DNA of 64,000 bases from Nostoc sp. DedQUE12a. GTDB lineage: Bacteria; Cyanobacteriota; Cyanobacteriia; Cyanobacteriales; Nostocaceae. The stretch's first letter is position 1, and every line of letters starts with the position of its first letter. Under the pieces are notes generated by a model, which saw nothing but the letters and a program-made list of their open reading frames with translations, made no database searches and was not told the origin of the DNA. Positions 44,045 to 63,342 of this stretch are shown piece after piece. The stretch lies in assembly GCA_034530795.1 (NCBI GenBank), contig JAVRCH010000059.1, forward strand, positions 847 to 64,846. Reading direction: 5' to 3'. A program made the position numbers and the translations under genes.

Positions 44045-44086
44045 TTAAATCTTCATATCTACAACAGCAGCATTAGGAAAGATTCT

Positions 44087-45085: not shown

Positions 45086-45104
45086 GGATGGAGGAGTGGG
45101 GAGG

Positions 45105-45195
45105 CAGGGGGCAGGGGAAAAGGTTAAAGGGAAAAGGGAAAAGGAATAAATTTAATCTTTCTCCTTTCCCCCTTACCCTTCCCCTTTTCCCATAC
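45105..45195. repeat. G-rich/C-rich palindromic dispersed repeat (related to the family A core)
   Basis: ggcagggggcaggggaaaaggttaaagggaaaagggaaaagg ... cctttcccccttacccttccccttttccc. Confidence 0.65.
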
Positions 45196-45220
45196 CCAAT
45201 GCCCAAATTTAAAATTTCAA

Positions 45221-46285
45221 ATGGTATTAGTTATGATTAAACGCCGTCGTTTTCTCAATGTTGCTACATCTGGTATATCTGGTTTTTCTCTGGCCTATCT
45301 GTTAGGAAGTTGCAGCCAACAAAGCCAACAAAATATATTAAACAGCGCAACTAGCAGTTCAAGTTCCCTTGGTATCAAAAGCAAGGTTCTCCGTATGGGA
45401 TATCAGAGTGCAGGGGATCTTGTGAGAAATCGCAAAGTATTAGAGAAACGCTTGGAGCCACTGGGAATTAAAGTGGAATGGGCACAATTTGTCCAAGGGC
45501 CCCAACTTATGGAAGGAATGGCTGCGGGAAGAGTTGATGTGGGATCGGTGGGGGAAACGCCGCCAATTTTTGCCCAAGTAGCTGGGTCAGACCTCGTTTA
45601 TGTCGTGGGTACGCAAAGAAATAAAAGAACAGGAAGAAGTAGTGTTATTGCTGTACCTCCAGAGTCCCCTTTGAAAAAATTTGAGGAGATTAAAGGGCAA
45701 GAAGTTTATTTTCAAAAAGGCTCGGCATCGCACTATTTTATTCTTAGAGCTTTGCAGTCAATTAATTTGACCATCAAAGATATTAAAATCAAAAGTATAC
45801 CGACTATTGAGGCGCGAGCTGCTTTTATTGAAGGTAAAATTCCTGTTTGGATGACATCAGATCCGCATTATGCGATCGCCGAAAAAATGGGTCGAATTCG
45901 TGTCCTCAGGGATTCTGTTGGTCTAGATTCTCCTGGTGGTTATTATATTGCTGACAGGAAGTTTGCGGAAGAAAATCCTGGTTTACTAAAAATTCTCATT
46001 GAGGAACTTCATCGACTTGATAAATGGGCAGAAGCGAATCGAGATGAAGTGAAAAAATTGATGATTACTGAACAAAAACTAGATGCGGACGTAGCCGCAA
46101 GGGTGATGTCTCGCCGCACTTTTGTAGGGCGCAGAGGACTTAGCGAGGCACTGATCGCAGAACAACAACGTGTAGCAGATTTGTTCTTTCAAGAGGGTGT
46201 CATACCAAAGAAAATTAACATTCGGGATGCGTTACTTCCGCCTGATTTATATGCTGCAATTACACCCGCTGAAATTATGGTTTAG
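45221..46285 (+). CDS. aliphatic sulfonate/nitrate-type ABC substrate-binding protein (SsuA-like)
   Basis: Tat-like signal MIKRRRFLNVATSG and lipobox-like LLGSC. LRMGYQSAGD and the periplasmic-binding-protein size also fit. Confidence 0.7.
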   Translation: MVLVMIKRRRFLNVATSGISGFSLAYLLGSCSQQSQQNILNSATSSSSSLGIKSKVLRMGYQSAGDLVRNRKVLEKRLEPLGIKVEWAQFVQGPQLMEGMAAGRVDVGSVGETPPIFAQVAGSDLVYVVGTQRNKRTGRSSVIAVPPESPLKKFEEIKGQEVYFQKGSASHYFILRALQSINLTIKDIKIKSIPTIEARAAFIEGKIPVWMTSDPHYAIAEKMGRIRVLRDSVGLDSPGGYYIADRKFAEENPGLLKILIEELHRLDKWAEANRDEVKKLMITEQKLDADVAARVMSRRTFVGRRGLSEALIAEQQRVADLFFQEGVIPKKINIRDALLPPDLYAAITPAEIMV

Positions 46286-46395
46286 AAAGTACAGACTAGT
46301 AGTTTTTGAGTACTCTATTTAACGCTAGAGGGCGGCTAAAGAAGCCGTCCTATTTTTGTTTGAGAGAAAAGTTTGCTAGTACGAGAACAACTTTT

Positions 46396-48219
46396 ATGAC
46401 AAAAAAAGTCAGAATTTCCAAATCTTTTCAACGTGCTGCCGATGCACCAAATTTACCTAATACGACCTTCAGGTTCATTTGTTATTTCGTTAACCAGTTC
46501 CGCTGGTGGTATTTAGCAATGGTAATCCTGGAGGCAACACACGCAACCTGTGGTATAATGCTTCCCTATGCCATTGGCGAGATCATTCGGAGCGTGACGC
46601 GATCTACTGCCGACAGCAAGTCCATTTTTGATACTGTCAGCCAACCACTGATGTTGTTCACCGCTTTGAGTGTGGGTGAAGTGGTATTCGGGCGATCGGC
46701 TGGACTTTTGCAGACTATTCTCCATCCCATCCACCGACAGCACATAGTCCGCTCTTTATATGCGTACTTGCAGCACCATTCCCATCGCTACCTAAGTAGT
46801 AGTTTTGCTGGAGCATTGGCACATCGCATCGGCGAAACCTCTTTGGGTGTTACCCAGACGATGCAAATGCTGATTACTGAATTTATGTCTGTAATTATCG
46901 TGTATATTGTATCCGCTATTTTACTGTATCGTGCCTATCCGCCCCTTGCTGCATTTGTGGGCACGTGGGCAGTTCTCTTTATCAGTATTTCCTTCTGGCT
47001 GGCAACTCGCTGCCGAATTTACTCCCGGAGAGCCGCAGCCGCAAGAAGTGAGACAACTGGGATCATCGTAGATGCAGTGACAAATCTCAGCAGTAGCCGC
47101 TTGTTTGCTCGTCTGGATTTTGAACGACGCTATTTGAATGAGCAATTAAAACACGAAATTAAAGAGGTGAGAAAGTCTAACTGGTACTCCGAACGAATTC
47201 GTTGGTTTCAGTTTATCTCAGCAGCCATTCTGAAAATTGGCACTTTGTATTATTCCCTCTCCCTTTGGAGTCAAGGGTTAATTGCTACTGCTGACTTCGT
47301 TGTGGCAACTAGTCTGTCGCTGTTGATCATCAGTGAAGCCCGTAATTTGAGCCGACGGTTTTTAGAATTCTTTGAACATATCGGCAATGTCGCCAATGGT
47401 GTCTCCGTAATTGTTCAACCGCATGAGTTAATCGATCGCGATAAAGCGATCGCTCATCCCATCACCCAAGGTAAAATCGAATTCCGGCAAGTTTATTTCA
47501 GTTATTCGGCTGGCAAACAAGTCTTTGAAAACCTTTCCATCACCATCCAACCAGGCGAACGTGTCGGCTTGGTGGGCTTTTCCGGCTCTGGAAAATCTAC
47601 CTTTGTGAATTTAATTTTGCGCCTTTTTGACCCACAATCAGGGCAAATTCTCATTGATGGGGTCGATATTCGAGATATGACTCAGAATGCCCTACACGCT
47701 CAGATCGGCTTAATTCCCCAAGATCCATCTCTATTCCATCGCACATTGATCGAAAATATTCGTTACGGACGCATAGATGCAACCGATGAGGAAGTGATTG
47801 AGGCAGCACGAAAAGCCTATGCTCACGATTTTATCGCTCAAATGAAGGAGGGTTATAATTCTTTGGTGGGCGAACGCGGTGTGAAATTGTCTGGAGGGCA
47901 GAGACAGCGAATAGCGATCGCACGGGTAATCCTTAAAAACGCGCCGATTCTAATTTTGGATGAAGCCACCTCTAGTCTCGATTCCATCACCGAAAAAGCC
48001 ATCCAGGATACCCTAGACTCAGCAATGGACGGCAAAACCGTGATTGTAGTAGCTCATCGCCTGTCTACTATTGCCCATCTAGACAGAATTTTGGTCTTCG
48101 ACCAAGGTCGAATTATCGAAGATGGTAATCACACCAAACTCCTGGCACGGCGCGGCGCTTACTACAGGCTATGGAAAATGCAGGCGGGTGGATTCCTGCC
48201 TGTAGAAGTCAGTAAATAG
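46396..48219 (+). CDS. ABC exporter, fused permease/ATPase (MsbA-like)
   Basis: Six-TM N-terminal domain, Walker A GFSGSGKST, signature LSGGQRQR and Walker B ILILDEATS. Start moved to the ATG at 46396. Confidence 0.85.
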   Translation: MTKKVRISKSFQRAADAPNLPNTTFRFICYFVNQFRWWYLAMVILEATHATCGIMLPYAIGEIIRSVTRSTADSKSIFDTVSQPLMLFTALSVGEVVFGRSAGLLQTILHPIHRQHIVRSLYAYLQHHSHRYLSSSFAGALAHRIGETSLGVTQTMQMLITEFMSVIIVYIVSAILLYRAYPPLAAFVGTWAVLFISISFWLATRCRIYSRRAAAARSETTGIIVDAVTNLSSSRLFARLDFERRYLNEQLKHEIKEVRKSNWYSERIRWFQFISAAILKIGTLYYSLSLWSQGLIATADFVVATSLSLLIISEARNLSRRFLEFFEHIGNVANGVSVIVQPHELIDRDKAIAHPITQGKIEFRQVYFSYSAGKQVFENLSITIQPGERVGLVGFSGSGKSTFVNLILRLFDPQSGQILIDGVDIRDMTQNALHAQIGLIPQDPSLFHRTLIENIRYGRIDATDEEVIEAARKAYAHDFIAQMKEGYNSLVGERGVKLSGGQRQRIAIARVILKNAPILILDEATSSLDSITEKAIQDTLDSAMDGKTVIVVAHRLSTIAHLDRILVFDQGRIIEDGNHTKLLARRGAYYRLWKMQAGGFLPVEVSK

Positions 48220-48287
48220 GGCATGGGGCATGGGGAGATGAGGGGGATGAGCGAGACAAATCAATTCAAAATTCAAAATTAAAGAAC

Positions 48288-48333
48288 TTCTGCCTTCTGC
48301 CTCCTGCCTCCTGCCTCCAATGCCCAATGCCCA
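48288..48333. repeat. heptamer arrays (ttctgcc/tcctgcc x4, then aatgccc x2)
   Basis: Read directly, upstream of the adenosyltransferase gene. Confidence 0.8.
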
Positions 48334-48362
48334 GATGATGCTATATTATAACTTTTCAAGAA

Positions 48363-49499
48363 ATGATAAGGAACGGTATCGGTATTCGCACGGCGCAAGT
48401 GCGTCAGGAACGGCTCATTGGTCAAATTCATGTTTATGATGGTGCGGGAAAAGGCAAGTCTCAGGCGGCTTTAGGGGTGGTTTTGCGCTCCATTGGGTTG
48501 GGAATTAATACACCTACTAATTCCAACCGGGTTTTACTACTGCGGTTTTTAAAGGGGCCTGAGCGTGATTATGATGAAGATGGGGCGATCGCAGCTCTAC
48601 AACGTGGTTTTCCCCATTTAATTGACCAGGTTCGGACTGGCAGAGCCGAATTTTTTGGCCCAGAAGAAATTACTGCTTTTGACAGAGATGAAGCCGCGCG
48701 GGGTTGGGATGTGGCCAAAGGTGCGATCGCCAGCGGTTTATATTCAGTTGTGGTTTTGGATGAAATTAACCCTGTACTGGATTTGGGTTTGCTACCAGTA
48801 GATGAAGTGGTACGCACATTAAAATCTAAACCCCAAGAGTTGGAAATCATTGCTACCGGACGCGCTGCACCACAAAAGTTGCTCGATATTGCAGATTTGC
48901 ACTCAGAAATGAAACCCCACCACCACCCAACTGCTAAAGCACTTTTACTTAATGGCATCGAAATTTATACTGGTGCTGGTAAAGGTAAATCTACGAGTGC
49001 TTTAGGTAAAGCCTTGCAGGCAATCGGTAGAGGAATTAATCACCCAGGCTCTACACGTGTATTAATTATGCAGTGGTTAAAAGGTGGTACTGGGTATACA
49101 GAAGATGCGGCGATCGCGGCTTTGCAGCAGTCATATCCAGAAGTAGTGGATCATCAACGTTGCGGTCGAGATGCAATTGTTTGGCGCAATTCCCGGCAAG
49201 AATTAGACTATGTAGAAGCCGAACGGGGTTGGGAAATTGCCAAAGTTGCGATCGCTTCTGGGTTGTATAAAACAATTATTCTCGATGAACTCAATCCCAC
49301 AGTTGACCTGGAACTACTACCCGTTGAACCCATTGTCCAAGCTTTGCTCCGCAAACCCCGCGACACTGAAATTATTATCACTGGTCGCTGTCAAAATCAA
49401 CCGAGTTACTTTGATTTGGCTAGCGTTCATTCAGAGGTTTACTGCCACAAACACTATGCAAATCAAGGCGTAGAACTCAAACGGGGAGTAGATTTTTAA
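48363..49499 (+). CDS. cob(I)yrinic acid a,c-diamide adenosyltransferase (CobO/BtuR type), tandem double-domain form
   Basis: There are two collinear halves, each with a P-loop (YDGAGKGKSQAALG; YTGAGKGKSTSALG), (R/Q)(F/W)LKG and (V/I)(V/I)LDE(I/L)NP. Confidence 0.8.
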   Translation: MIRNGIGIRTAQVRQERLIGQIHVYDGAGKGKSQAALGVVLRSIGLGINTPTNSNRVLLLRFLKGPERDYDEDGAIAALQRGFPHLIDQVRTGRAEFFGPEEITAFDRDEAARGWDVAKGAIASGLYSVVVLDEINPVLDLGLLPVDEVVRTLKSKPQELEIIATGRAAPQKLLDIADLHSEMKPHHHPTAKALLLNGIEIYTGAGKGKSTSALGKALQAIGRGINHPGSTRVLIMQWLKGGTGYTEDAAIAALQQSYPEVVDHQRCGRDAIVWRNSRQELDYVEAERGWEIAKVAIASGLYKTIILDELNPTVDLELLPVEPIVQALLRKPRDTEIIITGRCQNQPSYFDLASVHSEVYCHKHYANQGVELKRGVDF

Positions 49500-49643
49500 A
49501 TTGGCTGGCAGAGGGGTAGAGGGGTAGGGATAAAAACTGCTACAGTTTCTCTTCTGCTCCTCTAATTTCCATCTCCGTATCTTTGCGCGTCCTCCTGTCT
49601 TTGCGTCAGTCTAAACAATAAATCTCAATCAGAGATAAAATTA

Positions 49644-51989
49644 TCAATTTTCAATTAATACCTTTGCCACTTTTTGTAGCAAAGATGATTGACTATTATC
49701 ACTTATTTTTAAAATATTTTGAGTAAGCGTACTAAAATGTAAAGCTGTGATTGGATGTTCAATAAGTTCAGATGTAGAAATTTCTGTTTGAGAATATGTC
49801 TTTCCAATCAAGTGATAAACTCTAAATCCTTTTTTTAATTTACTTTCAAGACTTTTTCCAGGCGGAACATAATACTGAATAAAGCTTTCATTTTGCAAAT
49901 CAAAACATATCATATTTTGTATTCGCTTAATGGGTTTGATTTCGCCGTTGTAATATGATACCACAGGGAATAATCTACTACTATCTTCATCTCGAATTCC
50001 TCGATTAATTTTTAAGGTTCCCTTGTTTATGTCTTCAAGGATACCATTACGTCCAATTAAAGTTGGTGTATACAAGTCATTGGTATAGCAACTAATATAT
50101 AATTTTTCCGATTCATCTACAAAATATTGTTGATCGTCAATTAATTTTTCTTTATTGTTTTTCTGCTTTCTTAAAAATGGAAATTCTTTTTCTATTTGTT
50201 TGATGTCACGCATTACATTTTTGATATATATGCAACCCTCTTTATATAAGAACTCTACTGCTACTGCTTTAGCTTTCTTGTGTCGTGGGCTACGCACATA
50301 TATAGTAAAGAATTTTTTTTCAGTAAATGATTGAGCAGTAATTGGCAAGCCAAAGTCAGAATCTACAAAACTTAACCTCATCCAGTTTTTAATTCCCAAT
50401 TCAATCAAAATCTTCTGAAATTCTGGTGAAATATTTATCTTAAATTTATCGCAAAAACTTTGCCATTGTTCGCTATCTTCTTGACCTTTTAAATAGCACA
50501 AAATCGAACTATCTATGTCCAAAAATTTACCATCTGTAAAAGCCTGTGTATCCTGACGTAGGGTATCTTCATCATTTTTTTTATAACTTGTATAATTAAA
50601 AACACAGCAATCAGGTTCTATATTCTCAACTTTCTTAGATTCTTTTAATTTAATAGGTATAAATTGTTTTAGATTTATACCCTGCAAGCTAAAAAACTCT
50701 CCTGTATCCAAATAGTTAAACTTTCTCTTTAACTGTGAATAAAAATCAACTTTCTCTTTATTATCTATTTTTGTTGATGGATACCAGAAGCCATCATTTC
50801 CCTGGTAAGCCATTGAACCCACTTCTTGCTCCAAATCTCTATTGAAAACTAAATAATTTTTTCCCTTATCAAGGTTAATATCCGACCAAGGAACAACTTC
50901 AGTAATTTTCCAACAAGGCTCGTCTTCACTCTCAACTAATTGTTCATAGGTACTAATGGTTTTTCCTATATTATAAAATGTGAGTAAAGATACCCCTTGA
51001 TGTTTCAGAAAATTCTTCATAAATTGTTTGTCAGATTCAGTCAGGTCAATTCCAATATTGTTAATAATCTCTAATGATTCTACAGATTCTATGTTGTTGA
51101 TAAAAGCATTTTCTAAATAATTGTCAGCCTGAAAATGAAGAGGTTTAAATTTAATATTACACTCACTTAAAAAGCCCTCAAGCTTTGTCATGAGATTTTG
51201 ATAATGATAAACCTGAGTTTTTCTGAACTTCTCAAAATCTTGCTGATCTTTAGGAAATTCCATAAAATAAATAGAATTTTGGCGACGAGCATCGCGCTTA
51301 CGTTCAAAGTAGTAATTTTTCTTGTTATGGACTAACCAATCCTCGTCACTATCTATGTTGGTGTACTTATCTTGTGGTAAAAATCGTCTGCTTTGTCGAG
51401 ATAAGGTTAACGTTAAGACATTATAGGGATTGTATTTGATTAATAAACTCTGTCCCCAAACTAAAAGAGCATCTTTCGATTTGGTTAAATTTTTGGCATG
51501 GACTAAGAGTAATTCTTCAAAACCATTCACTGTCTCAACAGATAAGCTTTCATAAAGAAGATAAAATTTAAAAACTAAATTGAAAATTCTTTCTTGATTA
51601 TCTTTAAATAACCGTTTCCATCCAGAATGGCTTTTATTTGGAGATAAAAAGAATACATTGATTTTACCATTAACAGAGGAAAGAAAGTAATAAACATCTG
51701 AATATTTACGTTTGTCTCCATATCCCCAAAGCCGTTCTTGGATTTGTTTTTTAATGTATTTATGCCGTTCTTTATAAAAATTGGCTTGTGAATCTTCATC
51801 TTCAGGATACTCATCTTCAGGATACTCATCTTCAGGAACCTGATAGTTAAGAGGAAAATTCTCAATTCCCATATTCTTATTAAAGAGATACTGGAAAAGA
51901 CCTTCAGCAACCTCTTCTGGTTTTAGTAATATCTGTAACTGGTTTGTTCTTGATTTATCTGATAATACTTTAGTCATTTTATCTCTCAT
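49644..51989 (-). CDS. 781-aa protein of unknown function, partner of the helicase-nuclease
   Basis: Long open frame in very AT-rich DNA. The ATG at 51989 lies one nucleotide after the upstream TAA (taaTatg) and follows aggga. No motif was confidently recognised. An acidic EDEYPEDEYPEDED repeat lies near the N-terminus. Confidence 0.8.
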   Translation of the reverse strand: MRDKMTKVLSDKSRTNQLQILLKPEEVAEGLFQYLFNKNMGIENFPLNYQVPEDEYPEDEYPEDEDSQANFYKERHKYIKKQIQERLWGYGDKRKYSDVYYFLSSVNGKINVFFLSPNKSHSGWKRLFKDNQERIFNLVFKFYLLYESLSVETVNGFEELLLVHAKNLTKSKDALLVWGQSLLIKYNPYNVLTLTLSRQSRRFLPQDKYTNIDSDEDWLVHNKKNYYFERKRDARRQNSIYFMEFPKDQQDFEKFRKTQVYHYQNLMTKLEGFLSECNIKFKPLHFQADNYLENAFINNIESVESLEIINNIGIDLTESDKQFMKNFLKHQGVSLLTFYNIGKTISTYEQLVESEDEPCWKITEVVPWSDINLDKGKNYLVFNRDLEQEVGSMAYQGNDGFWYPSTKIDNKEKVDFYSQLKRKFNYLDTGEFFSLQGINLKQFIPIKLKESKKVENIEPDCCVFNYTSYKKNDEDTLRQDTQAFTDGKFLDIDSSILCYLKGQEDSEQWQSFCDKFKINISPEFQKILIELGIKNWMRLSFVDSDFGLPITAQSFTEKKFFTIYVRSPRHKKAKAVAVEFLYKEGCIYIKNVMRDIKQIEKEFPFLRKQKNNKEKLIDDQQYFVDESEKLYISCYTNDLYTPTLIGRNGILEDINKGTLKINRGIRDEDSSRLFPVVSYYNGEIKPIKRIQNMICFDLQNESFIQYYVPPGKSLESKLKKGFRVYHLIGKTYSQTEISTSELIEHPITALHFSTLTQNILKISDNSQSSLLQKVAKVLIEN

Positions 51990-51990
51990 A

Positions 51991-54900
51991 TTATTTTTCC
52001 CTTTGAAACAAAAAGTTTTTGAGAATATCAGATTCAACCGGAATATTATGGCGGTCAAAGTAAATTAAATTTCCAGAAAATAAATTTGGTGAGTGTTGCT
52101 GATTTTTTTCTTGTTTTGCTTGCAAGTTTAGAAGTAATCCTCTCACAGCTTTAAATTCTGCATAATCTGAAACAATAGCATCTAGCTTCTTTTGTGCTTT
52201 TTCTAGTGTCTTTTGTGAAAGGCGATTTCCTGAAGCTTGACTCCATGCTTTAACATCAATACAAAATAGCGTATTGTCTTTGATATAATACAAATCAAAA
52301 CGTTCATACAATTTATGATATTTTTTGAAATCAAGCAATGGCTCAAAACCATAGTTAGATTTTATAGCTTTCCAGTCTTTACCTTTAAAAAGTACATCTT
52401 TAATCCAGCGTTCCGCAAAATTTTCAGTCAGCGATGGATACAAAACATCGTAAAAGAAATGTGGGCGTGGAATATAGGTATTAAAAATTTCCGGTTGTGG
52501 AATCAACTCGTTGTACAATTTACAAATTAAATTAGTCGAAGGATCTGTCAAAGCAATTTCGTTACCTTCCAAGTCATAGCCTTGAGCATTTGTTTTGAGA
52601 TATTCAGGATATAATCGCTGCTGGTAATGATAAATTTTTTCCCCATTAATGCTATCGCTGACGATCTGAAACTGTTTACCTTCTTCCTCCACAGAAGCTA
52701 AATATGGTGTAAATCGAGTTTGTTCTGCGTTGTGATAAAATAATGAGTCAATAAAATCATCAGAAAATAGTTCTAACTCTTGTAACTTTTTCAGATATCT
52801 GTCTGGCTCTTTAAAAACAATTGGATCGCGTAAAGCATCCCACATTTTTGTAATAGCAAATGCTTTTTTATCTTGATGAAAATTTTCAATATCATTCAAC
52901 ATTTTTTCTCTAAACATTTGAAAATTTACAGAAGCATCAGTTTCATCATAAACATGATCGTCATAATCGTTAATTGCTCGTTTTTTTTCCTCCTCTTGAA
53001 CGTTTAAATAAACTTTGTGGTTGTTAACAGAGAATTTACGAATTTCATCAGGTTCTTTCTGCTCCAGGTATCTATAAAAATTCACTAAATTTTTTCTTGT
53101 TTCTTCATTAATGAAAATCTTTCCTACTTGGTCTGGGAAATCACGCCTTTCAGATCGGCCAATGGCTTGTAAAATTCCTTTACCTAATAAAATTTGATGT
53201 TGTTGCTCTCTAAACGCTCCAGCTTCCGGTTGACTTAGATATTTGTTGAAATCTTTGATTTCTAAATTAGAATCTCCTAAATTTACAATACTTTTCATTA
53301 AACCAAAATGATAAAGTGTTGTAGATTTTTCAGGTTCTTTTGATTTTTTCAATGATGATTTCATTACTGTATAGTAACTGTCCATCAGCAAAACTAAAGA
53401 GTCAAAGTCCTTTTCTTCTCCGTTGGGATTTTTGATGATGGGGTTCAAACCTTTTGAGGCTGATTGATAAGCTGAGATAAAGAAAATTTTTTGCCCTTCT
53501 TCTTCAACAAGCTCATCCAAATATGTTTTTTGAGTTGTTTTATCCAAGTAATTTTTATTAAAGGAGGCTTCATATAAAATTATTTTAATCAGAATATTAC
53601 TTTTGTATTCTTGATGATTTAGATTGACATAGTATATGCTTGGATGCTCTGAGGATTTTTCAATCTTAAAGTTATTATGATGAAGTTTTTCCCAAAATAT
53701 CATCAATTTTTTAATCCAGCTTAACGTTTGCGTAAAAGCAATCGTTTCTTGAATTGATTCATCTTCAAAAAGGTAAAATAAGAAACGAATAAAATTTTTT
53801 ATTTCTTGAATCTTGTAAACACTGAACCAAGCTCTATCATTTTTGCAATCGTTAATAAAATGTTTTAAAGTTTTATTTTCAAATTGTTCTGCAACTTCTT
53901 GAGTCTCGTTATTTGGAAACGATGATAAATTAGCGTTGAAAAAATTCACTGTAATTTGTCGCTTGGCATTACGCTGGCTTCTAATTTCTTCACAAAGCAA
54001 TATTTCTTCTTCAATCATTGCTTTAAAAGAACTTTGACCAGATTCATTACGTAGATTATCTTCCAAATAACGCATATCATAACTGGTACTTAAATCGCCA
54101 AAAATTCCTCCTGTTGCTGAAATAAGAAAAATCACATTACTATTATTGGTTAGCATAGAATTTATCTTTAATTCAGGTGAAGTCAATATAGCAGTACTCC
54201 CAATAGAGACTTCTCTCAGATCTTGAGCTATTAAGTTATTCTTGGGATTTTGATATCGAGAAATTTCTTTGATATTTATGATAGACTTATAGCTTTCATA
54301 GACATAGGTACGGTTTAAGTATTTGAGTAGTTGATTTGTTGATGAGCTTTCTTCACTTGCGTTTTGGACTCTAGTTATCTGTTTTGACCAAATATCTAAA
54401 GAACGAGATTGAGAATCCTCAGCATCCAAAACATTAGCCAGAAAATTTTTGATAGATTTAATTTCTCGTCGAACAGCCAAAATAGCATAAATTAATTCTG
54501 CTACAGACGTATTATCTGCAATTATTTCCTCAGTGATGTGAACATGACCACCAGAAGGTCTAGTTAAAAATAATCTTTTTAGAAGCTCGATGTTGTAGAT
54601 ATATAGGTTATTATATGAAAAAATGTTCATCAATTCATCACTGATTTTGTTGTAAAGCTGCTGAGGAATCAACAAACTTCTATTATTCTCAAATTTTGAA
54701 AAAACCCTAGCCAACATTTCAAAATTTAATACAATGGTACTTTCTTGATCATAATCATCGAGAATCCCAACAATTTCGTCCATTGATTTATCAAGACATT
54801 TTTTTATTGTTACTACCTGTTCTAAAAAATTGATAGAATTTCCTTCCTCAAATACTAGTCGTTGATATGTTGGGGCAAACTTTTGCAATTTTGGATCAAT

Positions 54901-55938
54901 ATCTTTGTTTTTATCAAAATATTCTTGAAACTCGGACAAAGCACCCCTATTTTTCTCAATAAAATTTAAAAATTCTCTGTTTTCATTATTTTGTGTAGAA
55001 AAAAGGATGGACAATTCCCTATTGATAGATGAAAGTGCATTATTGATTGCCAATTGTTCAGGTGAGATGATATCAATTTTTTTATCTAGCATAATTTGAT
55101 AGCCATCTTCCTGCTCATCCAATGCAAGGATAAATTTTGTAGAGGTATTTGTGTATTCAATAACGTATTTATCAAGCTTGTCTTCTTTCTTTCTCCATTT
55201 TTCGCCAATATGGATAAAGTATGGAATAGAAGTTTCAAACTTATCATAAGTAAGCATCAAAATTCCCGATTTTTCTTGCAAAAGATGAAGAGGGAAAAAT
55301 ATCTCCATCAACCTCAAACATTCAATTGGCCAAGTTTCTTGAGCCAACTGAGATTTAATGATAAATTCTAAAAAACTTTCAAATAACTTGTTGAGTTCTC
55401 TTCTTGCTTTTGTAATTTCAGAACTATTCAATTCTTCATCGCCAAAATCTACTATTGTAAAATATTCAAGACGATTAATAACATTTTTTATTTTGCTCAG
55501 ATTTTGTTTATTTTCTTGAACTTTTTCATGAGAATTGTATTTTGATATCAACTGCCAAAATTTTTGATTACTAATGATTGCAGATATCCATTTTGGGTAT
55601 ATTTTAATATATTCTTCAGTCGTCTTCATCTCTAATGAATTTAGTTTATAGACGGGAATATCAGGATATTGCCTAACAATTGAATTTGGAACACATAAAT
55701 GTTCTCTTAATGGAGCAACATATATACCGATGATTTTAGTATTGGGATGTTCTTTAATAGTTTTGCAAATTGCATGGAACAATTGGTGAGTCTTTCCTGA
55801 ACCTGTACCATAATTTATGAGTTTTAGTTGGGAACGGTTTTCTCGAAAGCTATCTTCAATTGTTGTAAGGTAGGAATTAAGGATTTCTGAACGAGCCGAT
55901 TCTAGCTGCCGACCAAGGGAATCTTTTCGCTTTTGCAT
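51991..55938 (-). CDS. 1315-aa SF2 helicase (DinG/XPD-like motif pattern) with a C-terminal PD-(D/E)xK-like nuclease motif
   Basis: Motif I GTGSGKT (aa 44-50; nt 55789-55809), motif II DEQED (aa 274-278), motif III SAT (aa 607-609), an SASKGLN motif V-like segment (aa 826-832) and motif VI QAIGRSERRDFPDQVGKIF (aa 924-942). The C-terminus reads FDLYYIKDNTLFCIDVKAW (D1215...D1228-x-K1230; nt 52249-52296). Confidence 0.85.
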   Translation of the reverse strand: MQKRKDSLGRQLESARSEILNSYLTTIEDSFRENRSQLKLINYGTGSGKTHQLFHAICKTIKEHPNTKIIGIYVAPLREHLCVPNSIVRQYPDIPVYKLNSLEMKTTEEYIKIYPKWISAIISNQKFWQLISKYNSHEKVQENKQNLSKIKNVINRLEYFTIVDFGDEELNSSEITKARRELNKLFESFLEFIIKSQLAQETWPIECLRLMEIFFPLHLLQEKSGILMLTYDKFETSIPYFIHIGEKWRKKEDKLDKYVIEYTNTSTKFILALDEQEDGYQIMLDKKIDIISPEQLAINNALSSINRELSILFSTQNNENREFLNFIEKNRGALSEFQEYFDKNKDIDPKLQKFAPTYQRLVFEEGNSINFLEQVVTIKKCLDKSMDEIVGILDDYDQESTIVLNFEMLARVFSKFENNRSLLIPQQLYNKISDELMNIFSYNNLYIYNIELLKRLFLTRPSGGHVHITEEIIADNTSVAELIYAILAVRREIKSIKNFLANVLDAEDSQSRSLDIWSKQITRVQNASEESSSTNQLLKYLNRTYVYESYKSIINIKEISRYQNPKNNLIAQDLREVSIGSTAILTSPELKINSMLTNNSNVIFLISATGGIFGDLSTSYDMRYLEDNLRNESGQSSFKAMIEEEILLCEEIRSQRNAKRQITVNFFNANLSSFPNNETQEVAEQFENKTLKHFINDCKNDRAWFSVYKIQEIKNFIRFLFYLFEDESIQETIAFTQTLSWIKKLMIFWEKLHHNNFKIEKSSEHPSIYYVNLNHQEYKSNILIKIILYEASFNKNYLDKTTQKTYLDELVEEEGQKIFFISAYQSASKGLNPIIKNPNGEEKDFDSLVLLMDSYYTVMKSSLKKSKEPEKSTTLYHFGLMKSIVNLGDSNLEIKDFNKYLSQPEAGAFREQQHQILLGKGILQAIGRSERRDFPDQVGKIFINEETRKNLVNFYRYLEQKEPDEIRKFSVNNHKVYLNVQEEEKKRAINDYDDHVYDETDASVNFQMFREKMLNDIENFHQDKKAFAITKMWDALRDPIVFKEPDRYLKKLQELELFSDDFIDSLFYHNAEQTRFTPYLASVEEEGKQFQIVSDSINGEKIYHYQQRLYPEYLKTNAQGYDLEGNEIALTDPSTNLICKLYNELIPQPEIFNTYIPRPHFFYDVLYPSLTENFAERWIKDVLFKGKDWKAIKSNYGFEPLLDFKKYHKLYERFDLYYIKDNTLFCIDVKAWSQASGNRLSQKTLEKAQKKLDAIVSDYAEFKAVRGLLLNLQAKQEKNQQHSPNLFSGNLIYFDRHNIPVESDILKNFLFQREK

Positions 55939-56130
55939 TACTTTTCATTACCTTATGTAGGGTAAACACATAAAACCTGAGCATAGGTAACTGACGAATC
56001 TCTAGCCCAGGGCGCTTGAAATCGCTGTTATCAAGGCAAAGTCTGTTCGCGCCGACTTTATATTGAACTATCTTAGATCTGGAAAATATACCAAAAATTC
56101 TCCGTTTATTTATCGAATTCTTCATAAATA

Positions 56131-56149
56131 TATAGAAAAATTTTCTATA
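56131..56149. promoter_or_regulatory. 19-bp palindrome in the AT-rich divergent region upstream of the helicase gene
   Basis: tatagaaaa a ttttctata, about 190 nt upstream of the 55938 start. Its function is unknown. Confidence 0.2.
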
Positions 56150-56323
56150 AAATTTCTTTTTGCCAAAATATAAACTTTTTCTGTATATAGAGCCTGTTTA
56201 AGGAAACAATATAAAAAATTTCCGTGTAATTCACCGTGATATTTAGAACTTTTCCGAATATCATTCACTAGCGCGACTCGACTCTATCGATAGCTGTACG
56301 CACTCTTAACTCATTCTTTGCTT

Positions 56324-59119
56324 ATGCTATACAAGCACCATCGACAAAAGCTGTTGAAATCGATCGCACTATTCTTAATTGGAACATTTCTGCAATTTTT
56401 GTTTTACATCCCAACACCAGTCTTATCCCAAAATTCCAATAACTGTAGCAATATTACAATTCCTCTGACACCTGAAGAACAAACTTACGCTCGTGCTGCT
56501 TGGCAGTATTTTGTGAAAAATTATCAGCCAGCAACGGGATTTACCAATTCTACTGGGGGTTATCCTTCCGGTACGCTTTGGGATATGGGGAATTACCTGA
56601 TGGCGTTGAATGCTGCACGCTGGTTGAATCTTACTGACCAAGCAGACTTTGATACTCGCCTGAATAAGTTTTTGACGACTCTTAGCAGCCTGAAGTTATT
56701 TGAGGATGCCTTACCTAATAAAGTCTATAACGCAGCTACCGGACAGATGGTTGATTATGGCAACAATCCCATTGAACGGGGTATTGGCTGGTCTGCTTTG
56801 GATGTCGGTAGAATCCTGGCTGCGTTTGATGTGATTCGCAGCTGTCATCCGCAATATAAGGATTGGCTCAAGGGCATTGTAGCAAAGTGGCAGGTAGGGC
56901 GATCGCTCAAAGACGAACAACTTTTTGGCGCTACTGTTCTGACTGACAACAAAACGTTATTGGTGCAAGAAGGACGACTCGGCTACGAAGAATACGCCGC
57001 TAGAGGTTATCAACTTTGGGGCTTCTCTGCACCGAAAGCTATTGCTTTTGAGCCGTTTAAGCTAGTGGAAATTAATGGCGTCCAAATTCCCGTTGATACC
57101 CGTGATTTTCAAAGCACTAACGCCAATAATTACGTTGTGAGTGAGTCTTATATTCTTGATGGTATTGAATTTGGTTTGCAAGGTCAGTTAGCTGATTTTG
57201 CTGCTAGAGTTTTGGATGTCCAAAAACGCCGTTACGATACTACAGGTCAGTTAACTGCGGTTACAGAAGACAATATTGACCAAGCACCCTATTTTCTCTA
57301 CAACACTGTCTACGCCAACGGTACAAACTGGGCAACAATTACCGACGCTAACCAGCCTTATCCCCAGTTTCGCAGCATCAGCACCAAAGCTGCTTTTGGT
57401 TGGCGCTATCTTTTTCCTGATAATGCCTACGCCCAAAAACTTTTTGATGCTGTTAAGGATCTCCGCAGTCCTGATGATGGTGGCTACTATGCTGGTATTT
57501 ATGAAGAATCAAAGCAACCCAATAAAGCTTTGACAGGTAATACTAATGGGCTAATTTTGGAGATTTTATACTACAAAGCTAGGGGAAATCGCCCTTTAAT
57601 TGCCTCTGGTACTGTGAGTGTGTCTACTGGTAAGCCCAGTGAGAATGCAACACCCTCAAATCAAGCGAATTCTACTGTTACGCCTCCTACCCCAACCCCT
57701 GCGGATACTTCTAAAATTACAGAAGTGGCTGTTGCACCGATTCCACCAGTGGGTAGTCCGCAACCATCATCTAATCTCAAATTAGAAAGACCACTATCGG
57801 TAATTGAAAAACGCTATGCAGAGGCGGCTTGGCGATACTTTCAAGCTAATTATCACTCCAAAAATGGCTTAGTTGACGATCGCAGCGATTTCAAAGGTGC
57901 AACTCTCTGGGGCTTAGGAGATTATCTGGCAGCCCTCCATGCAGCGCGATCGCTCGATATAATTAACCCCAAAGAATTTGACGGACGCACCCGACATTTA
58001 TTAGCAGCCTTGACAAAATTACCTTTATTTGCTGGTGAGTTACCGAGTCGGGGTTACGATACTAGAACGCTGCAATCAGTGGATTATGGTGGAAATCCGA
58101 TTCCAGAAGGAAATGGCTGGTCGGCTTTAGATTTGGGCAGGATGCTGGCGGCGCTTTATAACTTAAAAACCTGTCATCGAGAATACACGGCTGCGGTAGA
58201 TAAAATTGTGCTGGATTGGTCATACTTGCGTGTGGTACGGGAAGGTATTCTTTCGAGTGCTACTGTTAGCAAAGAAGAAGATGGGCGATATCTTACTCGC
58301 GTCAACCCTGAAACCCGCTTAGGTTATGAAGAATATGCCGCTCGTGCTTTTCAATTATGGGGGTTTAATGTTGAGGGTTCTGCTGTTGGTGGTGAATATC
58401 AAACTGCCTCAGTAGAGGGGGTGAAAGTACCAATTCAACGCCGCCGCACAGATACTAACTCCAAAAACCAATATACAGTTAGCAATCCGTTCTTACTCTA
58501 TGCTTTGGAATTTGGACTAGATCCACAAATGCGATCGCTTTTTGAGCCGATTTTCCAAGCGCAAGCCGAACGTTATCGTCGCACCGACACTCTCACAGCC
58601 TCAGCTACCACGCTAATCGATCGCAAGCCTTACACTGTCCACAGTACAATTACTGGGCAAGGCGATGCTTGGGTAGCTTTAGGAGATGACGGTCAACCCG
58701 TACCCAAAGGACGATTAGTAAGTACAGCAGTAGCTTTTGCTTATCATGCTTTGCTTCCAGAAAATAAGTATAGTCAAGAATTACTACAAGCAACAACTGA
58801 TTTATATAATCCATCGGCTGGATTTTATGAAGGCTTCTATGAAACCACGGGTAAAACGGCAGTTGGTTTCACTAGCAGCACCAACAGTATGATTTTGCAA
58901 TCCTTGTTGTACAAAGTGATGAATGAACAACCTCTAATTCGTCCGGCTACCACCATGAAGTCTCCTTGGTGGGTGGCAGTAAGTAAGGGAAATTCCGGGC
59001 GAGGTTTGCCCAACACTGCAATCCAACGAACCAAGTTAATTTCTGATGGTTCTGGAAGTTACTGGGCTTCAGCTAGCAAAAATACTCAACTAGTAACTGG
59101 TACAAAAGTCACAGAATAA
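56324..59119 (+). CDS. secreted protein with two tandem DUF3131-like domains
   Basis: N-terminal TM/signal segment. The internal duplication is visible directly: YARAAWQYFVKNY / YAEAAWRYFQANY; GNNPIERGIGWSALDVGRILAA / GGNPIPEGNGWSALDLGRMLAA; RLGYEEYAARGYQLWGF / RLGYEEYAARAFQLWGF. The family name is from recollection. Confidence 0.7.
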   Translation: MLYKHHRQKLLKSIALFLIGTFLQFLFYIPTPVLSQNSNNCSNITIPLTPEEQTYARAAWQYFVKNYQPATGFTNSTGGYPSGTLWDMGNYLMALNAARWLNLTDQADFDTRLNKFLTTLSSLKLFEDALPNKVYNAATGQMVDYGNNPIERGIGWSALDVGRILAAFDVIRSCHPQYKDWLKGIVAKWQVGRSLKDEQLFGATVLTDNKTLLVQEGRLGYEEYAARGYQLWGFSAPKAIAFEPFKLVEINGVQIPVDTRDFQSTNANNYVVSESYILDGIEFGLQGQLADFAARVLDVQKRRYDTTGQLTAVTEDNIDQAPYFLYNTVYANGTNWATITDANQPYPQFRSISTKAAFGWRYLFPDNAYAQKLFDAVKDLRSPDDGGYYAGIYEESKQPNKALTGNTNGLILEILYYKARGNRPLIASGTVSVSTGKPSENATPSNQANSTVTPPTPTPADTSKITEVAVAPIPPVGSPQPSSNLKLERPLSVIEKRYAEAAWRYFQANYHSKNGLVDDRSDFKGATLWGLGDYLAALHAARSLDIINPKEFDGRTRHLLAALTKLPLFAGELPSRGYDTRTLQSVDYGGNPIPEGNGWSALDLGRMLAALYNLKTCHREYTAAVDKIVLDWSYLRVVREGILSSATVSKEEDGRYLTRVNPETRLGYEEYAARAFQLWGFNVEGSAVGGEYQTASVEGVKVPIQRRRTDTNSKNQYTVSNPFLLYALEFGLDPQMRSLFEPIFQAQAERYRRTDTLTASATTLIDRKPYTVHSTITGQGDAWVALGDDGQPVPKGRLVSTAVAFAYHALLPENKYSQELLQATTDLYNPSAGFYEGFYETTGKTAVGFTSSTNSMILQSLLYKVMNEQPLIRPATTMKSPWWVAVSKGNSGRGLPNTAIQRTKLISDGSGSYWASASKNTQLVTGTKVTE

Positions 59120-59210
59120 ATAGAAAGGCAACTAACTCAGGACTTATGCCCAGTCTACGGAAAACCTAAACCCAAAGTGGTTACTTAGGCTACTAAAGAG
59201 GATATTACTA

Positions 59211-59271
59211 CTTGTGGGGTGGACATCTTGTCCGCCCTTCCTTACCGACGACGAGACACCTACCCCACAAG
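59211..59271. repeat. nested-hairpin dispersed repeat
   Basis: The arms cttgtggggt (59211-59220) and accccacaag (59262-59271) enclose ggacatcttgtcc. This is a repeat type common in Nostoc intergenic DNA. Confidence 0.6.
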
Positions 59272-59736
59272 AAAAGTTGAGTGTTTTTATTTGGAAATCC
59301 GTAATCGCAAAACTCTGTGTGTTAATAACCAGTTGTATTTGGGAATACTTGTACATGAGTCAATGTATTCATATCATGTCCACCTAATCAGTTATCAAAA
59401 ACTCTCTGCGTCTGGCGTGTCCCTCCGTCCTTCATATTTTTTGGGATGTTGCTACACGCAGCATCTCCTTGAAGAAAAGTTCCGATCTAAAAAAGCCTGA
59501 GATTTTGATTTCTCTTTGTATTAGCCCTAATGATAAATCTTGAACCAGACACGATCTCAGTAGCTTGTACGACCAATAGACATCTCGATTTAAAATCCCT
59601 AGCTAGTTATTCCTTTAAATCTATTTTCAAAAATCATGCTGATAGACAGAGTGTAAAAAATGGCTATTATTAATTCTTTCTCTACGATAAAGTACGCAAA
59701 CATAATCTAAAATCTAAAATCCAAAATATTACTAAG

Positions 59737-61719
59737 ATGACATCAGTTTCTATTATTGATAACTCCGCAAATTTTTCCGGTAATAGCCGCTCTTTACTCA
59801 AAAAAAGAACGCTGTTATTTCGTTATTTGGCAGAAATAAATTTAATTTTTGGTATCTGGTATTTGCAATGGCGCATTACTCATTCTATTAATTTTGATGC
59901 ACTTTGGATTTCTATCCCGTTGCTAGTAGCAGAAATTTATAGCTATTTCGGTGGGGTAATGTTTGTAATTGGGTTGTGGCGGCCTTTAGTTAGACAAATT
60001 AAATCTCTTGACCAAATGACCCCACCGATACCTAGATCTGACTGGCCAACAGTGGATGTATTTATTACGTGCTACAACGAGCCGCCAGAAATTGTACAAG
60101 AAACAGCTAAAGCTGCTTTAGCAATGGATTACCCGCCAACCAAGTTACGTGTTTATGTGCTAGATGACGGTAACTCGGCTGATATGCGAACAATGACGGA
60201 AAGATTGTGTATTGAGGATTTGCAGTCATCACAACTACAGCAGGAAGCAGAACGAATTGATGCAGAACGCTGTTCTTTGTTGGAACGCTTGAAGCAACTG
60301 GAAAATCTCACACCTAACACTCAAGCTGCTGAAGAATGGCTGCAAGGATCGTCAGAACCAGAGGTCAACCAATTTGCTAGCGAATTTGTGAAAAGCCTGC
60401 GACAGTTTATTCTTTGGTTACCTCCACAACATCAAAGTATGAGGGAACGCCTCACTACCGAACGCAAAGCCTTAGAAGAAGCTATTCGCAAAAAAGAACT
60501 AGAATTAGTTGAACTGGCTCGTTTTCGCTACATTGCTCGTCCCAAGCCAGCTGGTGTACCCCATCACGCTAAAGCGGGTAACCTCAATTACGCAATTTTT
60601 TCTGGAGAAACTTCTGGAGAGTTTATTCTCACCTTAGATGCTGACCATATTCCCAAACCACAATTTATTAAGCGAGTTCTGCCTTATTTCTACACTTATA
60701 ATCTTTTCACAGGGAAATATGACCAGAATCAAATTGCTTTTGTCCAGACCCGCCAGGATTTTTACAACATTCCTCCAGGCGATCCTTTTGGACATCGAGC
60801 AAATTTATTTTATGGCCCGCTGCAACAAGGTAAAGATGGCATGAATGCTGCTTTTTATACAGGCACGAATGCACTTTTGAGGCGGGAAGCACTGATTAGT
60901 GTAGGACTGCAATATTTTGCTGATGAATTTGCCAAAGATGAAAAACGTTTAAATGAATTTCAATTAATTGGTGGCGTATCCAGCAACAGTATTACAGAAG
61001 ATATGAATACAGCAATGCGTCTACATGGCGCTGGATGGAAATCTATTTATCATCATGAATTGTTAGCAGAAGGTTTAGCACCAGATGACCTCAGTTCTAC
61101 TCTTAAACAACGGCTACGCTGGGCACAAGGAACTATTCAAGTGCTGCTGAGAGAAAATCCATTAACAAAACCAGGGCTAAGTTTTTGGCAGAGATTACAT
61201 TATTTTAAAACCATGTATAGCTATTTTTCTGGTTTTGCGACTCTGGTTTTTATTTCTTGTCCAATTATCTATTTTTTTACCGATATTATTCCAGTTAAAA
61301 CCTACGGCCCGGATTTTGCCATACACTTTTTCCCAGCTTTTATTATCAATCGCTTGACTTTCCTTGCAGCCACTTGGGGGATTCCGGCTGGAGAAGTTTG
61401 GCGTTCAGAACAATACGCGATCGCTCTATTTCCCTTATTAATCCAAGCCGTATGGAGTGTATTTACAGGACAAAAACTCAATTTCCAAGTAACGCCTAAA
61501 CAACGACAATCTGGCATTTATATCCGGCTAGTTTGGCCACAGGTTGTTGTTTTTATCTTGACCATTTTGGGAATATTATGGAGCCTTTATCGGTTTGCAA
61601 CAGGCCATCTAAATTATCCTGAAGTTCACTTACTCAATGGTGCATGGGCTATTTATAACTTGTTACTTTTGTCGGCCATCATCCGCGCATCTGTTTGGCA
61701 ACCTCCGAAAGAGGTGTAA
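59737..61719 (+). CDS. processive family-2 glycosyltransferase, cellulose-synthase-like (plant CesA/Csl-like features)
   Basis: VFITCYNEP, VLDDG, HHAKAGNLN, LTLDADH, ITEDMNT and QRLRWAQG (QxxRW), with N- and C-terminal TM bundles. A coiled-coil insert of about 115 aa lies between VLDDG and HAKAGN. Confidence 0.85.
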   Translation: MTSVSIIDNSANFSGNSRSLLKKRTLLFRYLAEINLIFGIWYLQWRITHSINFDALWISIPLLVAEIYSYFGGVMFVIGLWRPLVRQIKSLDQMTPPIPRSDWPTVDVFITCYNEPPEIVQETAKAALAMDYPPTKLRVYVLDDGNSADMRTMTERLCIEDLQSSQLQQEAERIDAERCSLLERLKQLENLTPNTQAAEEWLQGSSEPEVNQFASEFVKSLRQFILWLPPQHQSMRERLTTERKALEEAIRKKELELVELARFRYIARPKPAGVPHHAKAGNLNYAIFSGETSGEFILTLDADHIPKPQFIKRVLPYFYTYNLFTGKYDQNQIAFVQTRQDFYNIPPGDPFGHRANLFYGPLQQGKDGMNAAFYTGTNALLRREALISVGLQYFADEFAKDEKRLNEFQLIGGVSSNSITEDMNTAMRLHGAGWKSIYHHELLAEGLAPDDLSSTLKQRLRWAQGTIQVLLRENPLTKPGLSFWQRLHYFKTMYSYFSGFATLVFISCPIIYFFTDIIPVKTYGPDFAIHFFPAFIINRLTFLAATWGIPAGEVWRSEQYAIALFPLLIQAVWSVFTGQKLNFQVTPKQRQSGIYIRLVWPQVVVFILTILGILWSLYRFATGHLNYPEVHLLNGAWAIYNLLLLSAIIRASVWQPPKEV

Positions 61720-62617: not shown

Positions 62618-62850
62618 AATAGGGTTTTTTCAGCTAATCTGCTGAAATATTTCACTATAGTTATTGGTCATTGGACAAATGATTAACGATCAAAACATAC
62701 CTCGTGAATCACATTGCAATATTTATATATCTTAATAATATTTAAATTTATAACTTTATAAACAAAAATATTTTTATAGCTATTGCAGTTTGTATTAATT
62801 TGATGCCAGAATAATAACATATTTAAAAAAAATAGTTGGAGAATTCATCC

Positions 62851-63180: not shown

Positions 63181-63342
63181 ATATGCTAATCTAGTTTACC
63201 TTTGCAATTTACTTGCTTCCATAAACGAGTATCTAAAAACGCAATTAATCGCATCTATAAAGAACATAAAATCAGATTCTTCGGGTTCATGGCAAGTTTT
63301 TCATGCAATTTAATAGAGATTATATATCTAAATTTAAGGTTA

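Follow-up and report, generated by a model that had tools for sequence, protein, structure and literature searches.

The subject of this study is a cassette of two large genes, here called gene A and gene B, which lies in a stretch of 64,000 nucleotides (the window) from the cyanobacterium Nostoc sp. DedQUE12a (GCA_034530795.1, contig JAVRCH010000059.1, positions 847 to 64,846), and its closest described counterparts are two bacterial systems, one of which is DdmDE of Vibrio cholerae, reportedly presented by Jaskolska et al. in 2022. DdmDE has been characterised as a plasmid-elimination system, and its structures from V. cholerae and Lactobacillus casei date from 2024-25 (e.g., 9ezy, 8u3k, and 9ixm). 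DdmD joins a DinG/XPD-like helicase (HD1 with INS and Arch inserts, and HD2) to a C-terminal PD-(D/E)xK domain, and DdmE has the layout N-L1-(C-APAZ)-L2-MID-PIWI of the long-C prokaryotic Argonaute type. The nuclease residues of DdmD are E1082, D1085, D1100, and K1102, and those of DdmE that bind the guide 5′-phosphate and Mg2+ are Y363, Q376, E401, K405, K674, and E678. The other, ApsAB, is an antiplasmid system of Escherichia coli ST38 (Zongo et al., Nat Commun 2024, PMC11096173) and is a known but little-studied module; a literature search for later work on it found only the original paper. ApsA is a protein of 1569 amino acids (aa) that combines a superfamily 2 (SF2) helicase with a PD-(D/E)xK nuclease and bears the motifs GFGKS218-222, DELH532-535, SAT823-825, QAVGRVER1140-1147, and D1420...D1433-V-K1435, whereas ApsB is an Argonaute-like protein of 743 aa with the MID motif Y409-x3-K413...Q431-G...K489 and a C-terminal N743 that was proposed to reach the guide pocket (PMC11096173). 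Destabilisation of plasmids by ApsAB is abolished by the substitutions K221A, E533A, and K413A and is reduced by K1435A (PMC11096173). Plasmid elimination by ApsAB and by DdmDE depends on the Walker A, nuclease, and MID residues that correspond to those of genes A and B described below. ApsA and DdmD have been placed at the two ends of one PSI-BLAST continuum, and ApsAB-like systems have been noted in “some ... cyanobacteria” (PMC11096173).

The Nostoc cassette is, with a probability of roughly 85%, a nucleic-acid defence module of the ApsAB type, within the ApsAB/DdmDE superfamily, that was gained by horizontal transfer and inserted into the chromosome. Within the ApsAB/DdmDE family, its sequence places the pair in the ApsAB branch. 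The kind of system is not new: its family dates from a description of 2024, and the supplementary tables of PMC11096173 already contain members of the present clade. An initial annotation, made from the nucleotide sequence, had proposed that no named two-gene system fits the cassette; that proposal fails, for the cassette is ApsAB-like and its close homologues are listed in Supplementary Data 7/8 of that paper. The genes, the motifs on which the comparison turns, and the junction between the genes are the following.

51991..55938, minus strand: gene A, 1315 aa, an ApsA/DdmD-like DinG/XPD-family SF2 helicase with a C-terminal PD-(D/E)xK nuclease (open reading frame, AlphaFold2 model, Foldseek)
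55789..55809, minus strand: helicase motif I (Walker A) GTGSGK49T, residues 44-50, invariant in 45 homologues
55108..55119, minus strand: helicase motif II DEQE274-277, with D274, E275, and E277 invariant
54112..54120, minus strand: helicase motif III SAT607-609, invariant
53143..53169, minus strand: helicase motif VI QAIGRSERR924-932, with Q924, G927, R928, E930, R931, and R932 invariant
52249..52305, minus strand: PD-(D/E)xK core E1212-R-F-D1215 ... D1228-V-K1230, with all five residues invariant
51987..51993, minus strand: gene junction TAA-T-ATG as read in the sequence, with the stop TAA of gene A at 51993-51991, one T, and the ATG of gene B at 51989-51987
49644..51989, minus strand: gene B, 781 aa, an ApsB-like/DdmE-like protein of Argonaute fold, predicted to be the guide-binding sensor and to lack slicer activity (open reading frame, AlphaFold2 model, Foldseek, profile searches)
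50679..50741, minus strand: first part of the MID 5′-end pocket, Y417-x3-K421 ... Q436-G437 (38-sequence alignment)
50388..50402, minus strand: second part of the MID pocket, E530-x3-K534 (38-sequence alignment)
49647..49673, minus strand: conserved C-terminus K773...E780-N781, followed by the stop (38-sequence alignment)

The window proteins share only ~16-24% identity with ApsA and ApsB, and their place in the family is given by intermediates. Accessions in Supplementary Data 7/8 of PMC11096173 match six homologues of the window proteins (P0131, P0025, P0006, P0187, P0193, and P0224) exactly at their N-termini; these six tabulated ApsA/ApsB homologues, with the “ApsB-like” partner tag, share 57-76% identity with the window proteins, and the tabulated homologues include ones that are 70-76% identical to both genes. 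Four of them (P0131, P0187, P0193, and P0224) share 61-76% identity with gene A and are recorded in Supplementary Data 8 as PSI-BLAST homologues of ApsA at ~85% coverage. As in ApsAB, the two genes form an operon in which the helicase-nuclease comes first and the Argonaute-like protein second. Unlike ApsAB, the cassette resides in cyanobacterial hosts and is known here from sequence and models.

Gene A contains the full set of SF2 helicase motifs and the C-terminal D...DxK that had been read in it initially, and all of them are invariant or nearly so in its family (45-99 homologues). Each motif has a counterpart in ApsA, so that the Walker A, DExx, SAT, and QAxGRxER elements and the D...DVK nuclease motif recur in both proteins: DEQE274-277 corresponds to DELH532-535, SAT607-609 to SAT823-825, QAIGRSERR924-932 to QAVGRVER1140-1147, and D1215...D1228-V-K1230 to D1420...D1433-V-K1435, while K49 corresponds to ApsA K221 and to DdmD K55, both essential in published mutants. 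With DdmD, gene A shares the DinG/XPD-like helicase, the C-terminal PD-(D/E)xK domain, and the same E-x2-D...D-x-K pattern. An AlphaFold2 (AF2) model spanning residues 37-1236, which keeps both the Walker A and the D-x-K motifs, had a predicted local distance difference test score (pLDDT) of 81.3 and a predicted template modelling score (pTM) of 0.80. When it was compared with the Protein Data Bank (PDB) by Foldseek, ranks 1-15 were all DdmD (E 3.8e-20 to 2.1e-16), in alignments of 1270-1340 columns on targets of 1122-1178 residues, that is, essentially over the whole target; DinG (E 7e-8), XPD/TFIIH, and CRISPR-associated DinG came after them. The earlier description of a DinG/XPD-like helicase joined to a nuclease of the restriction endonuclease (REase) fold thus holds. 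Gene A is shorter than ApsA (1315 versus 1569 aa), from which it differs by the absence of the ~170-aa N-terminal extension and by the position of the Walker A lysine (49 versus 221), and it is longer than DdmD (1315 versus ~1190 aa).

The relationship of gene B to ApsB was detected in sequence profiles. In an exhaustive HMMER search of 1.84 billion representatives, the gene B profile reached distant relatives of 660-750 aa; its matches included the ApsB-like protein P0329 (E 9.4e-5) and intermediates, among them P0287 (E 7.8e-19). P0329 shares 70% identity with the published fragment of E. coli ApsB, which in turn matched the intermediates at 1e-28 to 1e-36, and a comparison of P0329 with the gene B family by hhalign gave a probability of 91.8% over 651 columns. 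When aligned, Y417/K421/Q436-G437/K534/N781 of gene B fall on Y410/K414/Q432-G433/K490/N744 of P0329, of which Y410/K414/Q432/K490 correspond to ApsB Y409/K413/Q431/K489; N781 corresponds to ApsB N743. Gene B and ApsB therefore have in common the Y-x3-K..QG..K MID motif, the C-terminal Asn, and a detectable sequence homology, and cyanobacterial homologues of this clade appear in the supplement of PMC11096173; they differ in that the span from the MID Tyr to the final Lys is 37 residues longer in gene B (117 versus 80). Conservation was counted in a 38-sequence alignment of close and distant relatives spanning the ApsB superfamily, in which D415, Y417, Q436, K534, P642, T756, and K773 are invariant and K421 (37/38), E530 (37/38), G437 (35/38), and D625 nearly so, with N781 as the last residue in 33 of the 38 relatives.

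The AF2 model of gene B, built from a 41-sequence alignment, had a pLDDT of 66 and a pTM of 0.58. Its Foldseek matches in the PDB were headed by DdmE of V. cholerae and L. casei at all of ranks 1-6 (E 1.9e-7 to 2.3e-5), with a probability of 1.00 and ~700 aligned columns, at TM-scores of only 0.26-0.39 and a model pLDDT of 66; Thermus thermophilus Argonaute (TtAgo), RsAgo, and animal PIWI proteins followed. This list, together with the invariant MID pocket motif, agrees with the initial annotation in assigning the 781-aa partner to the Argonaute/PIWI position, and it differs from the ApsB report, in which the best similarity to Argonautes was a loose one, in that DdmE and canonical Argonautes are the best matches of gene B. 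The best structural match of each window protein is hence the matching subunit of DdmDE, a named system, contrary to the idea of a system without a name; structure matches that put both genes in a named system were what the initial annotation had said would refute it. The link to DdmDE is one of fold and architecture, because no sequence match to it appeared at E<=10 (see below), and this fold-level relation agrees with the ApsA-DdmD PSI-BLAST continuum of Zongo et al. (PMC11096173). Gene B is also longer than DdmE (781 versus ~690 aa), and PADLOC, which was searched for both window proteins, gave no match to DdmDE or any other system.

In the model, residues 557-625 of gene B form an RNase H-like strand-strand-strand-helix-strand run, the first strand of which (FFTIYVRSPR) contains no acidic residue; only D625 is kept throughout the family. 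Gene B probably has neither slicer activity nor a complete slicer tetrad, as judged from this model, and would in this resemble DdmE, an Argonaute-fold partner likewise without an obvious DEDX tetrad. D625 (~50115-50117), which closes the fourth strand of the run, occupies the place of the second catalytic Asp in canonical PIWI domains. Both D625 and D415 (~50745-50747), which lies two residues ahead of the pocket Tyr, are invariant or nearly so across the superfamily and stand outside the published ApsB motif. A further feature of gene B is an acidic tandem peptide repeat, PEDEYPEDEYPEDEDS, at residues ~52-67 (window 51789-51836, minus strand). Its pLDDT falls below 50 at residues 55-68, its length varies among homologues, and it is probably a disordered linker.

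The conserved residues of gene B recall the guide pocket of DdmE. Y417, Q436, E530-x3-K534, K773, and E780 resemble Y363, Q376, E401-x3-K405, K674, and E678 of DdmE, and the E-x3-K spacing (E530/K534 versus E401/K405) is identical, if the mapping suggested by the pattern is right; gene B differs from DdmE in having the canonical lysine of Y-x3-K, which is typical of ApsB and of long prokaryotic Argonautes (pAgos). Because invariant residues of the ApsB superfamily appear to reproduce the Mg2+/5′-phosphate pocket of DdmE, and because DdmE is the best structural match, it is tempting to speculate that the partners of the ApsB and DdmE types represent a single kind of Argonaute and belong to one superfamily of DNA-guided pAgo/helicase-nuclease systems, a proposition for which we judge the odds to be even. 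This pocket parallel, drawn from the residue pattern, would go slightly past the original paper, where DdmE was stated to have no MID-like motif and to be structurally unrelated to ApsB (PMC11096173); if the two partners are indeed the same, that statement is contradicted, and short 5′-phosphorylated DNA guides would be predicted for a mesophilic cyanobacterial system.

Other Argonaute-based systems invite comparison as well. Long-B pAgo-nuclease systems (BPAN etc.) use an inactive guide-binding Argonaute as a sensor and an associated nuclease as an effector, and their MID motif is of the same Y-K-Q-K type; unlike the present cassette, in which the effector is a processive helicase-nuclease, they rely on a stand-alone nuclease and often act via abortive infection, and gene B, unlike their Argonautes, matches no Piwi/PAZ Pfam model. 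The initial annotation had suggested, as a hypothesis only, a pPIWI-RE system with a fused DinG helicase and REase, in which the 781-aa protein would be the PIWI-RE component. The parts are analogous, since pPIWI-RE also unites a DinG-type helicase, a REase-fold nuclease, and a PIWI-like protein (Burroughs et al., 2013), but there the helicase and the nuclease are separate genes in a three-gene system, whereas here two genes suffice and both functions are fused. The window proteins match none of the pPIWI_RE-family Pfam models (module_N, X/Y/Z, MID_pPIWI_RE, RNaseH_pPIWI_RE, and REase), nor Piwi, at E<=1, and the pPIWI_RE families are equally absent from the matches of 38 close and distant gene B relatives at E<=0.1, for which nine families were listed, none of them meaningful. 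In addition, sequence profiles group gene B with ApsB. The resemblance is one of component logic, membership in pPIWI-RE is unsupported, and such an assignment now deserves hardly any credence.

The pair recurs as a unit in other genomes. Each protein has 140-200 cluster-level homologues, and the best 120 for each are all >=55% identical, carry no Pfam domain, and come nearly all from cyanobacteria (Nostoc, Aulosira, Microcoleus, Planktothrix, Lyngbya, Crocosphaera, Pseudanabaena, and Prochloron). A survey of one genome per species, covering 185,579 species, yielded 53 loci; in 51 of these gene B follows gene A directly, the two exceptions being cut by contig ends, and the co-occurrence that the initial annotation had asked about is therefore borne out. 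Among the 39 complete loci, the spacing at the junction varies between -7 and +19 nucleotides (nt), and the same gene pair, gene order, and low guanine-cytosine content (GC) recur in all 39, which come from other genomes, so that the pairing is not due to chance. GC is 0.28-0.35 in the cassette against 0.35-0.57 in the flanks throughout these loci. A conserved third gene is absent across the 53 loci, where 257 flanking open reading frames fall into 165 unrelated clusters, mostly of housekeeping genes, with a few AbiE, PD-T4-6-like, or Cas12f/TnpB-like members. About 10 Nostoc genomes share the DUF3131 neighbour of gene A, the sole common flank, and the cobO side of the window is not shared. 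In several Nostoc loci (among L005, L052, L003, L004, and L001) the cassette has two or three DUF3131 paralogues in its vicinity.

In the window itself, the cassette has a GC of 0.308 (gene A 0.310; gene B 0.305), and the flanks reach 0.456 on the left (44000-49499) and 0.422 on the right (56318-61719). The sharply lower GC claimed for the cassette is thereby confirmed, and the hand counts behind that claim (18, 17, 29, and 26 of 60) proved exact on recount. One flank encodes an ABC transporter and a CobA/CobO/BtuR corrinoid adenosyltransferase, and the other a DUF3131 protein and a cellulose-synthase-like glycosyltransferase, all of housekeeping type as the initial annotation had stated. Its description of a compositionally foreign two-gene cassette of defence type is likewise supported. 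Beyond the cyanobacteria, cassettes were found in Caldilinea/Caldilineaceae (L039 and L050), Thiotrichaceae (L044), and a Calditrichia metagenome-assembled genome (P0229); these representatives of Chloroflexota, Gammaproteobacteria, and Calditrichota are 53-63% identical to the Nostoc proteins and still have a GC of ~32%, which indicates, as far as sequences can tell, transfer between phyla. Relatives were found neither among the viral contigs of IMG/VR nor, by tblastn, among the plasmids of PLSDB, and a phage- or plasmid-borne origin is unsupported for that reason.

About 9 of the 53 copies have large deletions, insertions, or apparent frameshifts, as follows.

L019: gene A without residues 49-510
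L045: gene A ending at residue 830, so that the nuclease is gone
L047 and L048: only residues 1-85 of A and 371-781 of B remaining
L050: an insertion of ~1 kb within gene B
L052: gene B without residues 351-704
L035, L040, and L049: possibly decayed, with apparent frameshifts that may be assembly errors

In view of the linkage, the foreign GC, the variable flanks, and these decayed copies, the cassette appears from its sequences to be a self-contained, horizontally moving, and dispensable two-gene module. The frequency of truncated, internally deleted, or interrupted loci raises the question of whether the copy in the window is itself an inactive relic; this is very improbable, given that both of its open reading frames are full length, that every invariant catalytic and pocket residue is present, and that the conserved leader described below and the coupled junction are intact. 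It might also be supposed that the genes encode a non-immune helicase-nuclease with an accessory protein, serving the repair, replication, or recombination of the host or of a mobile element, as DinG/XPD helicases and PD-(D/E)xK nucleases are common in repair and the neighbours in the window are housekeeping genes. A distribution as patchy as 53 loci among 185,579 species, a persistently foreign composition, variable flanks, and frequent decay speak against such a role; moreover, the cassette is accompanied by no integrase, transposase, or replication genes, IMG/VR viral contigs and PLSDB plasmids yielded no relative, and the Argonaute fold of the partner includes a guide pocket. Taken together, these features make this explanation scarcely tenable.

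Several observations weigh against an ApsAB-type defence module and have to be set beside the evidence above. Scans of Pfam, NCBIfam, and PADLOC-DB v2.0.0 gave no significant match for gene A or gene B, and the PADLOC check proposed by the initial annotation was negative for both proteins even at E<=1; gene A shows only sub-threshold traces of DEAD/ResIII at Walker A (DEAD at residues 41-79) and of NERD/YraN at residues 1199-1269, and gene B no match in any of the three. The two proteins are deposited in Nostoc sp. DedQUE12a as “hypothetical protein” under adjacent tags (gene A RM338_09795, to which P0121 is 100% identical, and gene B RM338_09790). BLASTP of the N-terminal 400 aa of ApsA, which are mostly the ApsA-specific extension, found no match in the gene A family, and it is because of this negative result that the sequence link from gene A to ApsA is carried by the published PSI-BLAST table. 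The family profiles of A and B found no match at E<=10 among all PDB sequences, including DdmD and DdmE, and PDB sequence searches with profiles and single sequences (A1, A2, A3, and P0287) likewise gave no real matches. The Foldseek TM-scores of gene A are modest (~0.4), and its model leaves out residues 1-36 and 1237-1315; the model of gene B is of medium confidence (pLDDT 66), with modest TM-scores as well (0.33-0.39). In the judgement of the authors of the ApsAB study, ApsB has no PIWI RNase H fold and its structure differs from that of DdmE (PMC11096173). Finally, the cassette in the window is surrounded by housekeeping genes rather than by a defence island, and defence genes are only sporadic beside the homologous cassettes, mostly flanked by housekeeping genes, so that the defence-island setting for which the initial annotation had proposed a check did not emerge. 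A protective function in cyanobacteria is argued here by analogy, since the support for the cyanobacterial members is sequence- and model-based.

If the cassette is an ApsAB-type defence module, a feasible model by analogy with ApsAB and DdmDE may be as follows. Gene B, with its Argonaute fold and incomplete slicer tetrad, would hold a short 5′-phosphorylated guide, probably DNA, in a MID pocket predicted to be lined by Y417, K421, Q436, E530, K534, K773, and the C-terminal E780-N781. Pairing of this guide with the DNA of an invading plasmid or other mobile element would produce a displacement loop (D-loop), which would recruit and activate gene A, a putative 5′→3′ SF2 helicase (K49; E1212, D1215, D1228, and K1230) that may until then be autoinhibited as a dimer. 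Gene A would then load onto the displaced strand, translocate 5′→3′, and degrade the DNA. The same machinery might instead be directed mainly at cyanophages, possibly via abortive infection, as phage are attacked by helicase-nuclease defence systems and by many pAgo systems, AbiE, PD-T4-6-like, or other defence genes adjoin some of the homologous loci, and action on plasmids is known only from non-cyanobacterial relatives. On the other hand, ApsAB eliminated several plasmids yet had no activity against eight coliphages (PMC11096173), DdmDE is characterised as a plasmid eliminator, and host killing has been reported for neither. Phages are thus an unlikely principal target, though one to be taken more seriously than the other alternatives discussed here, and plasmids or similar mobile DNA are the more probable one.

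Both cassette genes are intact and lie in the same direction on the minus strand. In the window listing of open reading frames, gene A spans 51991..55938 from an ATG, and that of gene B is extended to 52058 (49644..52058); the in-family start of the latter is the ATG at 51989, which gives 781 aa. The coordinates of the junction initially reported (TAA at 51993-51991, one nucleotide, and ATG at 51989) are exact, as is the shared direction of the two genes. The junction sequence reads ...GGGAAAAATAATATGAGA..., with a purine-rich AAGGGA ~10 nt upstream of the gene B ATG, and the TAA-T-ATG arrangement suggests that A and B form an operon with probable translational coupling. The NCBI version of gene B (P0001), of 777 aa, begins at a second ATG four codons downstream of 51989 (51977-51989, minus strand). 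Judging from the sequences, the first ATG is the more likely start, because it matches the near-invariant M1 and the MK/RxK N-terminus of the homologues and abuts the stop of gene A. The remaining feature of the cassette is its leader.

55939..56135, minus strand: 5′ leader/promoter region of ~190-200 nt, conserved directly upstream of gene A in Nostocales loci

This leader is kept 5′ of gene A where the further flanks differ (L001, L007, L009, L010, and partly L045), and since it persists among Nostocales loci despite an unrelated further flank, it is presumably part of the mobile unit and a putative promoter and leader. The GC over 55939-56317 is 0.335. An Rfam scan of 49300-56500 gave no match, the predicted RNA fold of the leader is no better than that of shuffles (z -0.49), and in a scan for consensus promoters and terminators promoter-like sites were no commoner than in shuffled sequence and terminators were not found. 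An open reading frame of 82 aa (55877-56125, minus strand) overlaps the beginning of gene A but was not accepted as a gene, its frame being broken by indels in homologous leaders. Elsewhere in the window, a second low-GC stretch (0.30-0.34) occupies its end (62000-64000) and contains a STAS-domain protein (62836-63180, plus strand) and a SpoIIE-type PP2C phosphatase (63343-63993, minus strand), which make up a partner-switching signalling pair.

What this analysis adds to the family described in 2024 is the annotation of the cyanobacterial pair and a hint that the guide pockets of ApsB and DdmE are equivalent. It predicts a function for two large proteins, deposited as “hypothetical”, that are left blank by Pfam, NCBIfam, and PADLOC v2 and that have relatives in dozens of cyanobacterial genomes, including those of Nostoc, Microcoleus, Planktothrix, Lyngbya, Crocosphaera, and Prochloron. 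This well-conserved and deeply sampled clade can help to settle the relation between ApsB-type and DdmE-type Argonaute partners; if the two are one, the cassette may be among the obstacles that plasmids meet on transfer into Nostoc-type strains. More generally, a cassette that removed plasmids in the manner of ApsAB and DdmDE could form one practical barrier both to genetic manipulation and to the natural flow of plasmids in filamentous cyanobacteria.

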